From an uncultured Gemmatimonadaceae bacterium (GTDB lineage Bacteria; Gemmatimonadota; Gemmatimonadetes; Gemmatimonadales; Gemmatimonadaceae): 64,000 nt of DNA. Positions 4,740 through 23,483 of this stretch are shown piece after piece. Location: positions 32,001 to 96,000 of the forward strand of contig CAWFQK010000005.1 in the NCBI GenBank assembly GCA_963817955.1. The letters are read 5' to 3'. Position numbers and translations under genes: made by a program. The notes beneath the pieces were generated by a model. It was not told the DNA's origin. It was given only the letters and a program-made list of their open reading frames with translations, and did not search any database. Each line of letters opens with the position of its first letter. Position 1 is the stretch's first letter.

Positions 4740-5278
4740 GCGCCCAACACGACCTGGGCCCAATGCCCAATGACCGGCGAATGACGGCGGTCGACGAACA
4801 GCTCGTCCGCGCGCCATTACCCGTGATCTTTAGTTTGGCGGCCGACGTCGAACGCTGGCCATCGCACCTCCGGCACTACCGTTTCGTTCGATTCACCAAT
4901 CGGACACGCGACGGAGGCGGGCTCGTCGAGATGTCGGCAAACCGGCCGTTCGGCCTCATTCAATGGCCGACGCGGTGGACGTCCCTGATGACTGTGACAG
5001 CGCCGGGTGGAACAACGCATCCGTCTATCCGATTCAGGCATGTAGGCGGAGTGACGACGGGCATGGACGTCGAGTGGTCGTTCCACCCCGCCACGGAGGG
5101 GACGCTCGTGCGAATCGTGCATGTGTGGAACGGGCCAGGCTGGCCGTTGATTGGTGAAGTTGCCGCACGAGGCGTGATTGGACCCGTCTTCGTGCACGGA
5201 ATCGCGTGTCGCACCCTTGCCGGGCTCGCCCACGCCGCCGAACGTTTGCCCACGGACGTATCACCGAGCGAGGTATAG
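4736..5278 (+). CDS. SRPBCC/START-fold polyketide cyclase/dehydrase-like protein
   Basis: VRAPLPVIFSLAADVERWP, MDVEWSF; ATGA overlap with the upstream stop codon. Confidence 0.8.
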   Translation: MSAQHDLGPMPNDRRMTAVDEQLVRAPLPVIFSLAADVERWPSHLRHYRFVRFTNRTRDGGGLVEMSANRPFGLIQWPTRWTSLMTVTAPGGTTHPSIRFRHVGGVTTGMDVEWSFHPATEGTLVRIVHVWNGPGWPLIGEVAARGVIGPVFVHGIACRTLAGLAHAAERLPTDVSPSEV

Positions 5279-5279
5279 A

Positions 5280-6521
5280 GTGGCTGATCGGCAACGGGTG
5301 GTGATCACGGGGATCGGGGCGATTACGCCGATCGGAATCACGCGCGAGGAATTGTGGAACGGACTCCACCGCTACCGCTCCGCAGTGCGCAGCGTGACGC
5401 GGTTCGACGCATCGATTTTCAGGAGCCGAATTGCAGCGGAGATCGACTTTGACCCGAACGATTTCCTCGAGCAACGCCGCGCGAAGCGCCTCGACCGGTT
5501 CGGTCAGTTCACGGTATCGTGTGCCCGTCTGGCGATCGAGGACGCCAGTCTCAACATGGCGGCAGAGGATCGAGAGCGTGTGGGGTCGATGATGGGAAGT
5601 GCCCTCGGTGGCGTGGGCTACGCCGAAGAGCAGTTCATGATCTTCAAGAACGAGGGGCTGAAATCCGTTTCAGCGACACTGGCGACTAACGTTTTCGCCG
5701 GCGCGGCGAGCTGCAATGTGGCAATCGAATTCGGCGCGCAGGGCCCGAACAGCACGAACGCGATGAGCTGCGCATCTGGCACGATGGCGATCGGCGAAGG
5801 GTTCCGGCAGATCCGCGACGGCTATGCCGACGTGATGATCTGCGGCGGGTCCGAGGCGCCGTTGAACCAGCTCTGCTTTGGTGCGTTCGCAATCATACGA
5901 GCGTTATCGACGCGCAACGACGCCCCGGATAAGGCATCGCGCCCATTCGACAAGACGCGTGACGGTTTTGTGATGGGCGAAGGCGCAGCGATCCTCGTCC
6001 TCGAGGAGTATGGCCGGGCGAAAGCCCGGGGCGCGCACATTTACGCCGAGATCATGGGATATTCGTTCTGCAACGACGCCTATCACATGACCGCGCCGCG
6101 GCCGGACGGATCACAGGCTGCGCGGGCCATGCGCGGCGCCCTGAAGGATGCACACATCGAGCCGCACGAAGTGGGGTACGTGAACGCACACGGCAGCAGC
6201 ACGCCGTTGAACGATTCGACGGAAACACGTTCCATTCACACCGTTTTCGGCGACCACGCGTCGTCGCTGCCCGTGAGCAGCACCAAGGCGTACTACGGCC
6301 ACGCGCTCGGAGCGTCTGGCGCAATGGAGGCGGCGATCTGCGCCCTCTCGCTGGAGCGTGGCTGGCTGCCGCCGACACTCAATCTCGAGTGTCCGGACGA
6401 GGAATGCGATCTCGACTACATCCCAGGCAAGGGCCGGGATGCGGACGTCGAGTTCATCCTGAGCAATTCATTCGGCTTTGGCGGGATCAACGCGGCGTTG
6501 GTGTTCAAGCGGCAGGGGTAA
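5280..6521 (+). CDS. Beta-ketoacyl-ACP synthase II-like ketosynthase (FabF family)
   Basis: RVVITGIG, active-site SCASG, NAHGSST, GHALGASG, SNSFGFGG; possibly a pathway-specific paralog rather than housekeeping fabF. Confidence 0.92.
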   Translation: MADRQRVVITGIGAITPIGITREELWNGLHRYRSAVRSVTRFDASIFRSRIAAEIDFDPNDFLEQRRAKRLDRFGQFTVSCARLAIEDASLNMAAEDRERVGSMMGSALGGVGYAEEQFMIFKNEGLKSVSATLATNVFAGAASCNVAIEFGAQGPNSTNAMSCASGTMAIGEGFRQIRDGYADVMICGGSEAPLNQLCFGAFAIIRALSTRNDAPDKASRPFDKTRDGFVMGEGAAILVLEEYGRAKARGAHIYAEIMGYSFCNDAYHMTAPRPDGSQAARAMRGALKDAHIEPHEVGYVNAHGSSTPLNDSTETRSIHTVFGDHASSLPVSSTKAYYGHALGASGAMEAAICALSLERGWLPPTLNLECPDEECDLDYIPGKGRDADVEFILSNSFGFGGINAALVFKRQG

Positions 6522-21287: not shown

Positions 21288-21376
21288 CGTTGTTCCCGGC
21301 GTTGGCCTTGGCGTTGACACCGAGCAATACATGGGGCCGCCGCGCACGCCATACTTCGATGTTTCTAAACCAATCG

Positions 21377-21405
21377 TTGCGCGGCAAGCCCGATCGGACT
21401 ACTCT
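21377..21405 (+). promoter_or_regulatory. Putative sigma70 promoter
   Basis: TTGCGC-N17-TACTCT immediately 5' of RNA motif copy A. Confidence 0.55.
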
Positions 21406-21410
21406 TAGAG

Positions 21411-21486
21411 GAGCGACACACGCGCTGTTCGCGTGGACAAGTTCCGATCGACCAGGGGCCTGCCGAAATGCGAGCAGGCTCTTTTT
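21411..21486 (+). ncRNA. Candidate structured leader/sRNA motif, copy A, ending in a terminator
   Basis: Shares GAGCGACAC, CACGCG/CGCGTG stem, GGAYAAGKTCCG, AGGGGCCTRCCGA and TCTTTTT with 22825-22896(-); hairpin GGGCCTGC/GCAGGCTC followed by T5. Confidence 0.55.
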
Positions 21487-21612
21487 GCGTTGTGTCGCGC
21501 TCGTGGTCTGCGAGCTGCCTGGCGTGGGGGGTCTCACTCACGCGCACGTTGTGTCTCGGCTCGTACGGCTATACCGGACTCCGACCACAGCAAATTGTAC
21601 AAGGAGTTCGAT

Positions 21613-21825
21613 ATGCGTACGACTGGTTCCGTTAAGTGGTTCAACGACGATAAGGGCTTTGGCTTCATCACGCCGGAAGGCGGCGCCAAGGATTGCTTCG
21701 TCCATCATTCCGCCATTCAGGGCAGCGGCTTCAAGACGCTGGCCGAGGGCGAGCGCGTCGAGTTCGACATCGTGCAGGGCCAGAAGGGCCCGGCCGCCGA
21801 GAACGTGACGAAGCTCAACGCGTAA
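21613..21825 (+). CDS. Cold-shock protein (CspA family)
   Basis: [40 protein letters not shown] ribosome-binding site. Confidence 0.97.
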
Positions 21826-21924
21826 TCGACCGACTGGCTCCGTTCGCGGAGCTGGTCAGCGCCGCGCGTTCGAGTGATCATTGCTTGAATGCGCGGCGTC
21901 GTCTTGATCTTCAACTGAGGCAAA

Positions 21925-22122
21925 ATGCCAGAGATTCATCTGAACGAAGCCGATCGCATGGACTGGGCGCTCAAGACGTTCAAGCGCCAGATGCAGAAGT
22001 CGGGAATTCTTCGCGAGCTGCGCAAGCGTCGGCATTATGTGAAGCCGAGTGAAGCGCGACAGATCAAGGCGAAAGCCGCACAGCGTATGCGCGCCAAGGC
22101 AGCCCGTCAGCGTCCTCGCTAA
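21925..22122 (+). CDS. rpsU: 30S ribosomal protein bS21
   Basis: ALKTFKRQMQKSGILRELRKRRHYVKPSE. Confidence 0.93.
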   Translation: MPEIHLNEADRMDWALKTFKRQMQKSGILRELRKRRHYVKPSEARQIKAKAAQRMRAKAARQRPR

Positions 22123-22227
22123 CGGGCTAGTCGCCTTACTTCACGCTTGAACTGGTAGACGCGCGAGGCAGCGCGTCGATTTCGCTATTGTGTGAACAGC
22201 GTAGACGTCAGTACGCCGAGCACGACC

Positions 22228-22755
22228 TCAGCCAGCGTCGGAGAGCTCGCGACGCGCGATATCCAAGCGCTCGGCGCAGTGCTTCGCGAGCTCGGGCGAG
22301 GTCAGACCACCAAGATCTACGCTCTTCGGCCGCCAGACCCAACTCGCCTCGTTTGAGGCGACGGCAATGAATACGTCTTCCCAAGCGGGAGACGCTGTCT
22401 GTTGGCCATTCTGCATCGGACGTTCTGGCGAGTGCGCGCGACGCGTACCGACGGTGCCGCGCCAGACGATGATCAGCAACTCACCTTCGGCGACTGAATC
22501 CGGCGTGCTCCGAAGCCACGCGAGCGTCAGCGCGACAGGTCCAAGTTGCAGGATGAATCGGCCGGGTGACAGGCGTACCTCAGGCTTCTCTCCATCGGCC
22601 ACTGGAGCCGTCTTGGAAACGTACGCGACGATCTCGTCGCCGAGTCGTGTCAGCTCTCGCGTACACGCGGCGAGCGCGCGATGCGAAGCGAGAAATGAAA
22701 GCGGATCCGACCTGTCACGCTCCGCAAAGTGGTGCGTGGGCGAGATTGCAGTCAT
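22228..22755 (-). CDS. Hypothetical protein
   Basis: ORF 22228..22788; ATG MTAISP preceded by GGAGG. Confidence 0.7.
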   Translation of the reverse strand: MTAISPTHHFAERDRSDPLSFLASHRALAACTRELTRLGDEIVAYVSKTAPVADGEKPEVRLSPGRFILQLGPVALTLAWLRSTPDSVAEGELLIIVWRGTVGTRRAHSPERPMQNGQQTASPAWEDVFIAVASNEASWVWRPKSVDLGGLTSPELAKHCAERLDIARRELSDAG

Positions 22756-22824
22756 CGAGCCTCCGTTCGGACGATAGAGTGCCGCCAATTCCGTGCTGAC
22801 GGTCGATCGGGCGGCAGCAGAACC

Positions 22825-22896
22825 AAAAAAGAATCGCTGTCGGTAGGCCCCTCGTGCCGGACCTTATCCACGCGGCGTTCTGCGCGCGTGTCGCTC
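22825..22896 (-). ncRNA. Candidate structured leader/sRNA motif, copy B
   Basis: Reverse complement GAGCGACACGCG-cgcagaacgc-CGCGTGGATAAGGTCCG-gcacg-AGGGGCCTACCGA-cagcgat-TCTTTTTT. Confidence 0.55.
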
Positions 22897-22900
22897 TATG

Positions 22901-22929
22901 AATCTAGTCAGTTGCACACCGATTGGCAA
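22901..22929 (-). promoter_or_regulatory. Putative sigma70 promoter
   Basis: TTGCCA-N17-TAGATT on the minus strand immediately 5' of motif copy B. Confidence 0.6.
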
Positions 22930-22997
22930 TCGGGTTTCAAACCCTCTAAACCATTCAATGCCGTGCGTTTACACGGCTCCGGCGCGCCACATGCACG

Positions 22998-23483
22998 TCA
23001 GCGCCACGTGCGCGACGACGTTCGCAACACAATACCCACTCGAGTGCCGCCACCGAGACCGACTTGAATTGCCGGGGTGATCGCGCCGCGCATTCGTCCC
23101 TCGATGTCTACGACAGCCGTGAGGTACGGTCGCACATTCCGGTCGCCGCTCGTGTACGGAACGCTCACACCACCGCCGAGAGAGAGTCCCACGGGCACCT
23201 CCCGAAAGGGATCGAGGAGAAAGCGAGCGATCGCGTCTACGCGCCCGCTCGCATGCGCAGCTGTGCCGCGCCACGTGGCGCCTGCCGCACCATCCACACC
23301 CATGCGCACGTACATACCAAACGGAATCACGATGCCGGCACCAGCTTCAGCGGCTGTACCGTTGCCGATGATGGCGTCGGCGCGATACTCGGCGTAGCGC
23401 GGCGGTGGCGCGTTCTGAGCGCGGACCGCGCGTGCGCCAACGAATGTTGCGGCCGCGAGCAGCGCACCGTGGAGCACCCTCAC
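22998..23483 (-). CDS. Hypothetical exported beta-rich protein
   Basis: Signal-like LLAAATFVGARAVRA-Q followed by Gly/hydrophobic beta-strand pattern; start approximate. Confidence 0.55.
   Translation of the reverse strand: MRVLHGALLAAATFVGARAVRAQNAPPPRYAEYRADAIIGNGTAAEAGAGIVIPFGMYVRMGVDGAAGATWRGTAAHASGRVDAIARFLLDPFREVPVGLSLGGGVSVPYTSGDRNVRPYLTAVVDIEGRMRGAITPAIQVGLGGGTRVGIVLRTSSRTWR

Follow-up and report, generated by a model that had tools for sequence, protein, structure and literature searches.

Two copies of a structured RNA motif, referred to here as copies A and B, occur in a stretch of 64,000 nucleotides (nt), the window, of contig CAWFQK010000005.1 (assembly GCA_963817955.1) from an uncultured Gemmatimonadaceae bacterium, each at the predicted start of a transcript and one of them in front of csp, a gene for a cold-shock domain protein. 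The motif is a real, conserved and previously undescribed family of leader RNAs of the Gemmatimonadales. Judged from its sequence and those of its relatives, it has a somewhat better than even chance of being a transcription attenuator, acting in cis in the leaders of cold-shock-type genes through an intrinsic terminator whose use is conditional, and such an attenuator would probably switch these genes on together. The observations from which this reading starts are the anatomy of the leader with its promoter, the covariation of a 5' hairpin (P1), of the terminator stem and of a helix that bridges the terminator (P0), the set of genes behind the leader, and its taxonomic range.

To our knowledge, the Gemmatimonadota, which are abundant soil bacteria, have almost no known regulatory RNAs. 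The motif would serve as a lineage-specific RNA regulon marker that names the likely cold-shock set of this group, including three conserved proteins without known function and a giant enzyme resembling cyclic-glucan synthases. As a compact and mutable module consisting of a promoter, a hairpin, a core and a terminator, it would also make cold-shock switching accessible outside the model phyla, where it could be asked whether premature termination is the control point, as opposed to mRNA stability or translation in Escherichia coli. The more than 140 examples collected are numerous and diverse enough to justify a curated entry in Rfam.

Members and taxonomic range of the family

The initial annotation of the window had proposed an undescribed structured RNA in front of genes, a proposal that is supported by numerous homologs, by covariation and by the absence of a match in Rfam. 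With a covariance model (R1) derived from copies A and B, 22 of 30 further genomes of the genus yielded full-length matches, one to five in each, and 50 of these genus-level matches were aligned. A refined model that includes both hairpins (R2) matched in 28 of 62 genomes of the family and in 5 of 61 and 1 of 27 genomes of two sister families; a phylum-wide draw returned R2 matches in 12 of 31 and 6 of 71 genomes, and none was found among 48 genomes of nine further families of the phylum, all of these counts referring to samples in which some genomes are incomplete.

One genome of each of 185,579 species was scanned with an exact pattern, which matched at least 120 stretches; 80 of these were examined and 69 were confirmed by R2. 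Among the matches listed, all 69 confirmed loci are labelled Gemmatimonadota, Gemmatimonadales, Gemmatimonadaceae or Gemmatimonas, with one labelled just 'bacterium', and the 11 unconfirmed stretches, about the number expected by chance, consist of all ten titled from other phyla and one 'uncultured bacterium'. The anatomy described below was read from 147 hits, corresponding to 129 distinct extended sequences.

In the genome containing the window, which has six csp paralogs, the profile search returned the two window copies only. A third, divergent copy, scoring 20.1 bits with filters off, precedes a second csp-rpsU pair on a different contig (G000:C1, about 4922-5002). The proteins of this second pair (G000:C1, about 4922-5650; L215, 523-1250) are 91% (Csp) and 57% (S21) identical to those of the window. 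In the third copy, P1 is made by the 5' GCGA itself and the terminator stem has a different sequence, an arrangement that resembles the variant in L059 and L061. Membership of the regulon varies among genomes.

Two simpler searches were of limited use: BLAST of copy A against its own genome was too insensitive, returning copy A itself and missing copy B, and an exact pattern of two blocks was too strict, finding no match in 40 relatives. The earlier view that the motif is no Rfam family holds, because Rfam 15 gave no match at gathering score over the whole window, none over the motif at an E value of 10 or less (21300-23000) and none at an E value of 0.1 or less in 20 related loci. Full-text literature searches, with subscription journals outside their coverage, found no description of the motif.

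Conserved anatomy and covariation

The leaders follow a common order, namely a sigma-70-type promoter, a 5' AGCGA, P1 with about seven pairs, a core reading GACAAGUUCCGA, a variable linker of 7-13 nt, an 8-pair GC-rich hairpin and a U tract. The core is single-stranded and almost invariant, with variation confined to its fifth base. The promoter arrangement TTGnnn-N16-18-TAnnnT is present in 112 of the 129 leaders, with a spacer of 17 nt in 107 and of 16 or 18 nt in five, and 5-11 nt (mode 7) separate the end of the -10 box from the G of GCGA, a distance from which the RNA should begin at about (A)GCGA. The boxes accordingly combine the 16-18-nt spacing of sigma-70-type promoters with a fixed distance to the predicted 5' end of the RNA.

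Both hairpins covary, the outcome sought when a covariation check was initially suggested. In 30 family- and order-level sequences, whose alignment had been fitted to the model, 16 of 17 pairs exhibit changes on both sides, compared with 6.7 +/- 1.5 in shuffled controls (0 of 500 shuffles reached 16), and 92.9% of the cells are paired, compared with 21-65% when the partners are slid; in the terminator stem, seven of eight pairs covary. Aligned with MAFFT, blind to structure, 84 csp leaders gave 14 of 21 pairs with changes on both sides (6 of 7 in P1, 4 of 8 in the terminator and 4 of 6 in P0), compared with 8.0 +/- 1.6, and 88.2% of the cells paired. Kinship among the sequences inflates all of these statistics, and the genus-level sets contain less variation. 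The slid controls, together with the frequent G-U pairs, support selection on an RNA of the motif strand.

The second hairpin is followed by at least five T in 108 of the 129 leaders and by at least four in 123, counted in a fixed window of 9 nt after the stem. This combination of a GC-rich stem, with a median energy of -17.4 kcal/mol at 37 °C, and a U tract occurs in a genome of 63-65% G+C and, as far as sequence can tell, gives the family the features of an intrinsic (Rho-independent) terminator.

Genes downstream of the leader

A co-directional downstream gene was assigned to 126 of the 129 leaders by a motif search of 700 nt downstream and manual reading of the remainder. The leaders precede csp (84), infA (10), a gene for a large GH94 protein (9), rpsU (8), a family of 175-amino-acid (aa) proteins (6), a lysine- and arginine-rich (KR-rich) protein of 53-56 aa (4), a 70-aa protein (2), and an 81-aa protein, a desaturase and a response regulator (one each), with three left unassigned; Pfam confirmed representatives of the CSD, S21, IF-1, FA_desaturase and Response_reg families. 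Among 43 leaders with enough flanking sequence, the next open reading frame (ORF) behind csp, as classified by Pfam, encodes a desaturase in 12 cases, S21 in five and IF-1 in four, one of the five S21 cases lying downstream of a desaturase in the same run-on ORF.

Such placement directly upstream of a coherent set of genes, in the same direction, supports the initial annotation, which had treated random placement relative to genes as the mark of an ordinary repeat. The leader occupies the position of an attenuator, between a promoter and a co-directional coding sequence. Start codons follow 20-153 nt after the U tract, with medians of 132 nt for csp, 53 nt for both rpsU and infA, and 25 nt for the KR-rich gene; the last of these genes starts so close to the U tract, at 24-30 nt, that a second promoter would not fit between them.

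In E. coli, Bacillus and cyanobacteria, cold induces Csp proteins, IF1, S21 and desaturases. It is from the behaviour of these families in other phyla that the gene set is called cold-shock-type here, a designation that is accordingly provisional for the Gemmatimonadales.

A helix bridging the terminator

In P0, the first six bases of the leader (GCGAYR) pair with a segment 4-10 nt beyond the U tract, so that the helix can exist only in read-through RNA. One of its pairs switches among C-G (24), U-A (24) and U-G (9) in the structure-blind alignment, and another among A-U (21), G-C (14) and G-U (5). The duplex energy is -8.7 kcal/mol with the leader's own partner, compared with -6.6 for shuffled, -7.1 for reversed and -7.5 kcal/mol for foreign partners. 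P0 has at least five pairs in 59 of 84 csp leaders, in all eight rpsU leaders and in 8 of 10 infA leaders, and is mostly absent elsewhere.

The two copies in the window

Copy A and copy B lie exactly where the initial annotation had placed them, on opposite strands, and the promoter boxes and the 17-nt spacing that it described are likewise present, in the arrangement found in the 112 related leaders. The features of the region are as follows.

21377..21405, + strand: promoter of copy A, with -35 box TTGCGC (21377-21382), 17-nt spacer and -10 box TACTCT (21400-21405); from the sequence and the arrangement in relatives
21411..21486, + strand: leader copy A, in the order GAGCGA, P1, core, variable linker, terminator hairpin, U tract
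21419-21424 with 21430-21435, + strand: P1 hairpin of copy A, six pairs; from fold and covariation
21436-21447, + strand: single-stranded core of copy A, GACAAGTTCCGA; from the sequence
21456-21463 with 21474-21481, + strand: terminator hairpin of copy A; from fold and covariation
21482-21486, + strand: U tract of copy A, TTTTT; from the sequence
21491..21498, + strand: 3' strand of P0, with partner 21413-21418 (pairing with 21493-21498), extendable to 21420
21499..21612, + strand: remainder of the csp 5' untranslated region (UTR), with additional hairpins; from sequence and fold
21613..21825, + strand: csp, a 70-aa cold-shock domain protein (Pfam CSD, E value 3.2e-31)
21925..22122, + strand: rpsU, ribosomal protein S21, after csp in the same direction (Pfam Ribosomal_S21, E value 1e-16)
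22228..22755, - strand: ORF of a 175-aa conserved hypothetical protein, the gene behind copy B
22825..22896, - strand: leader copy B, with GAGCGA, P1, an altered core GATAAGGTCCG, the terminator 5' arm and the U tract
22874-22869, - strand: 3' arm of P1 in copy B; from the sequence
within 22854-22843, - strand: retained 5' arm of the terminator in copy B, the 3' arm being gone
22830-22825, - strand: U tract of copy B; from the sequence
22901..22929, - strand: promoter of copy B, with -35 box TTGCCA (22929-22924), 17-nt spacer and -10 box TAGATT (22906-22901)

An exact pattern joining two blocks shared by the copies matched twice in the window, compared with 0.00 matches expected from 100 shuffles. 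Over the 83 columns of their alignment, column identity averages 84%, and conserved blocks are interspersed with loops of differing length. The predicted transcript starts lie at about 21411-21413 for copy A and about 22896-22894 for copy B. A consensus promoter scan of the window listed the promoter of copy B (9 of 12 matches) and did not list that of copy A. The sequence CCAAT, found 5' of both copies, is part of or adjoins the -35 box and is not kept as such in relatives. The two leader-gene units converge, so that the copies form inverted repeats flanking csp, rpsU and the 175-aa gene, whose product would have 186 aa if the TTG at 22788 were the start.

Copy A ends, as originally described, in a hairpin followed by TTTTT, 127 nt before the csp ATG at 21613, and scores 102 bits with R1 and 94.7 bits with R2. 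Copy B scores 93 bits with R1 and 37.6 bits with R2, the model that includes the terminator. The statement that copy B has a U tract and no strong hairpin proved correct: it has lost the 3' arm of the terminator and, with it, the GC-rich stem-loop that an intrinsic terminator requires, and it carries two substitutions in the otherwise invariant core. It is copy B, and not copy A, that is the atypical one. The changes in its core give a tighter hairpin of six pairs between core and arm, and copy B, a single case, would fit a locked-on variant of the leader.

Conditional termination as the proposed mechanism

A promoter, a covarying hairpin with a U tract, genes reachable only by read-through and a helix bridging the terminator together point to a conditional terminator within the leader. 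According to the proposed sequence of events, transcription would start at the sigma-70-type promoter, at about the A or G before GCGA, so that the motif would form the first 75-80 nt of the mRNA. P1 would fold first, leaving the core exposed, after which the GC-rich hairpin and the U tract would stop most polymerases and release a short RNA. Under the inducing condition, which may be low temperature, the presence of cold-shock-domain proteins (of the Csp or IF1 type) or both, polymerase would instead read through into the gene. In the read-through RNA of csp and rpsU leaders, the 5' end would then pair beyond the U tract as P0, closing a three-way junction in which the 5' end is buried, and the full-length mRNA should thereby be stabilised. 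Both the occurrence of termination and its regulation are deduced here from the sequences of the family.

The core is the likely control strand and a candidate antiterminator. Its segment CA(A)GUUCC can pair with GGGGC(C)UG in the 5' arm of the terminator, forming seven pairs, two or three of them wobbles, with one mismatch that falls exactly at the sole variable base of the core. This helix would form before the terminator and be marginally stable, with a computed hairpin energy of -5.2 kcal/mol at 37 °C and -10.0 kcal/mol at 15 °C. Folding of the nascent RNA pairs the core with the 5' arm in 69 of 113 leaders, and the pairing is possible in 92.7% and 84.7% of the cells in two data sets, compared with 20-59% when the strands are slid.

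Several points weigh against this interpretation. The core-arm helix exhibits changes on both sides in one and zero pairs, no better than shuffles, because both strands are nearly invariant; distant members with a varied terminator arm break the two outer pairs of the helix; and the 69 sequences gathered by the pattern scan overstate the conservation of the core, since the collecting pattern fixes both core and arm. At all computed temperatures, the terminator greatly exceeds the proposed antiterminator in stability, so that cold alone need not favour read-through, and for a Csp protein to melt the terminator of its own gene would amount to positive feedback, which is odd for homeostasis. The U tract is reduced to three or fewer T in 6 of 129 leaders, several leaders of one genus reading CCCGTTTG, and such weak tracts suggest that the hairpin may have a second role. 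The leaders of the KR-rich gene, of the 175-aa family and of most GH94 genes lack P0. Five of the six csp paralogs of the genome containing the window are unmatched by R2 at an E value of 0.01 or less, one of these carrying just the weak third copy, and the cold-shock designation of the regulon derives from the roles of its gene families in other phyla.

Alternative explanations

Among the four options offered in the initial annotation, namely a riboswitch, an attenuator, a protein-binding leader and a small RNA (sRNA) family, the attenuator or leader is favoured, and the free-standing sRNA and the metabolite riboswitch are disfavoured. A stronger form of the attenuator, considered rather unlikely, is a protein-independent cold-ON transcriptional RNA thermometer, in which the wobble-rich core-arm helix would last long enough to block the terminator only at low temperature. 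If this were true, one RNA module would both sense temperature and co-induce an order-wide cold-shock regulon of csp, infA, rpsU and desaturase genes, with P0 locking and stabilising the read-through mRNA.

It is also conceivable, at a low though appreciable probability, that the leader binds a protein and acts on mRNA stability or translation instead of termination. P1, the core and the P0 junction would then either bind a protein of the Csp, IF1 or S21 type or shield the RNA from ribonuclease, and the hairpin and U tract would rarely terminate transcription, serving instead as a structural element or as a binding site for Hfq or Csp. The invariance of the core exceeds the needs of a 7-pair wobble helix, P0 hides the 5' end only in the full-length RNA, and some lineages keep the hairpin with degraded U tracts, all of which would suit a binding platform. 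So would two reports in PMC1636342, according to which a cold-shock protein binds T-rich single strands best (dT7, dissociation constant 1.8 nM) and, in work cited there, a 5'-proximal 'cold box' stem-loop stabilises the E. coli cspA mRNA. Set against this, at least five T directly after the GC-rich stem in 108 of 129 leaders are the signature of a working terminator, and the protein partner is still only a candidate. Pairing of the core with the ribosome-binding site is no better than that of a shuffled core; as an anti-Shine-Dalgarno strand, examined in 80 leaders, the core gave -5.3 kcal/mol, compared with -5.5 for the shuffled core and -6.6 kcal/mol for coding windows, and this role was rejected.

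That the motifs are free-standing, trans-acting sRNAs of Hfq-type architecture, merely lying upstream of csp and other genes, is improbable. Their anatomy is the classical one of base-pairing sRNAs, with a promoter of their own, a 5' hairpin, a single-stranded seed, a terminator and a U tail, in one to five copies per genome, and a terminated product is expected under the attenuator model too. A free-standing sRNA would be a unit independent of its neighbouring gene, whereas a gene in the same direction was assigned to 126 of 129 leaders, starting 20-153 nt downstream, the shortest distances leaving no space for another promoter, and P0 joins the 5' end to sequence past the terminator. The core was also rejected as an sRNA seed: complementary 9-mers and 10-mers are not enriched in the genome, the 10-mers numbering 4, 4 and 11, own copies included, compared with shuffled means of 3.6-6.0, which is a weak test.

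A riboswitch for a small molecule or ion, with the three-way junction of P0, P1 and the terminator hairpin as aptamer and the core as ligand pocket, is highly improbable. The junction, the strong conservation of its joining strand and a terminator placed where an expression platform would be do recall such elements, but P0, being completed after the terminator and absent in several gene classes, lies outside any sensor that decides on termination, which leaves just two helices before the decision point. In place of an upstream aptamer with genes of one pathway, the leader precedes csp, infA, rpsU and desaturase genes, which have no common metabolite.

A DNA-level feature, either a palindromic operator, as the P1 palindrome just downstream of the promoter might suggest, or a pair of inverted repeats bounding a mobile or duplicated segment, for which the window copies enclosing 1.4 kb with csp, rpsU and the 175-aa gene could be taken, is barely credible, since an operator would conserve sequence, whereas here the stems stay paired through differing sequences with many G-U pairs, on one strand only, and the profile search places just two copies in this genome and single copies on different contigs elsewhere.

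Relation to known systems

The attenuator reading can be compared with several characterised systems. In E. coli, the conserved 5' module of cold-shock mRNAs is thought to set the fate of the mRNA in the cold, and the leader is not known to have an intrinsic terminator, which distinguishes it from the Gemmatimonadales leader. The two are alike in having a conserved 5'-terminal module with a 5'-proximal stem-loop shared by several cold-shock mRNAs, as described for cspA in PMC1636342 and work cited there. Like the cold box, the motif is a 5'-terminal element of several mRNAs, here those of cold-shock-type genes, a likeness in position and gene set only, by which the two would work alike with no relatedness implied. 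The enterobacterial cspA thermoregulator of Rfam (RF01766), the sole relevant match at an E value of 10 or less, scored 48.1 bits in the window, compared with a gathering score of 78, in a match (21496-21861) that begins past the U tract and lies mostly over the csp coding sequence; in ten related loci it scored 24.9-69.7 bits, also below 78.

The Csp-responsive terminators of E. coli lie in the metY-rpsO operon region and are not known to belong to a shared leader module. In the Gemmatimonadales, the terminator lies inside a conserved RNA family in front of csp itself, and a role of Csp proteins there is a conjecture. Common to both would be the gating of cold-shock genes by intrinsic terminators subject to override by cold-shock-domain proteins that melt RNA. 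In E. coli, according to work cited in PMC1636342, CspA, CspE and CspC act in this way, by antitermination at intrinsic terminators upstream of cold-induced genes.

With attenuators and riboswitch expression platforms, the motif shares its place in a leader close to the promoter, a GC-rich hairpin and U tract that precede the coding sequence, and an upstream strand that could pair with the 5' arm. It differs from them in having no recognisable aptamer, leader peptide, tRNA-binding element or known protein-binding element, in an alternative helix without covariation support, and in P0, which bridges the terminator. Multicopy Hfq-type sRNAs such as Qrr and OmrA/B resemble it in their promoter, 5' hairpin, single-stranded stretch, terminator with U tail and paralogous copies, whereas the motif is fused to the 5' end of a co-directional gene (126 of 129) and in many cases pairs beyond the terminator.

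Further observations on genes and neighbouring elements

The 175-aa family behind copy B recurs behind five other leaders and, in another case, behind rpsU. It has at least 220 homologs, all named hypothetical, and the few labelled by organism are from Gemmatimonadota. No Pfam family was matched by the protein; its AlphaFold model, with a predicted local distance difference test score of 80, consists of a helix, a six-stranded sheet and a helix, and a Foldseek search of this model against the PDB returned nothing at an E value of 0.001 or less, the best match being a weak one to frataxin (E value 0.026).

The large GH94 protein has 2885 aa in one locus (L216, 175-8832; G017:C2), with GH94 supersandwich, GH94 catalytic and glucoamylase domains, and is found behind eight other leaders. 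This architecture is presumably that of cyclic beta-1,2-glucan synthases, in which case the leader would link envelope glucan synthesis to the set of csp, infA and rpsU.

The KR-rich protein of 53-56 aa, which begins with MPKKPNYNFEKRRKE and starts 24-30 nt after the U tract (L040, 1611-1769; L042, L051 and L053), matches no Pfam family. Two other small families recur, one of about 70 aa (L149 and L166) and one of about 81 aa (L111, and also behind infA in L013 and behind rpsU in L039).

Two weak motif-like matches, of 23 bits (L078, 1103-1180, - strand) and 21 bits (L087, 1895-1972, + strand), lie between csp and a gene for a Cu/Zn superoxide dismutase. Each consists of a terminator hairpin with a degenerate upstream part, and could represent either a decayed copy or an ordinary terminator of csp.

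Beyond P0, the csp leaders contain more conserved hairpins, including a widely kept unit CCaUCGUGAGGG...GAUCACGA, as seen in the window (21499-21612) and in relatives. The full csp 5' UTR, of about 200 nt, is therefore made up of several structured modules, of which only the first is common to other genes.

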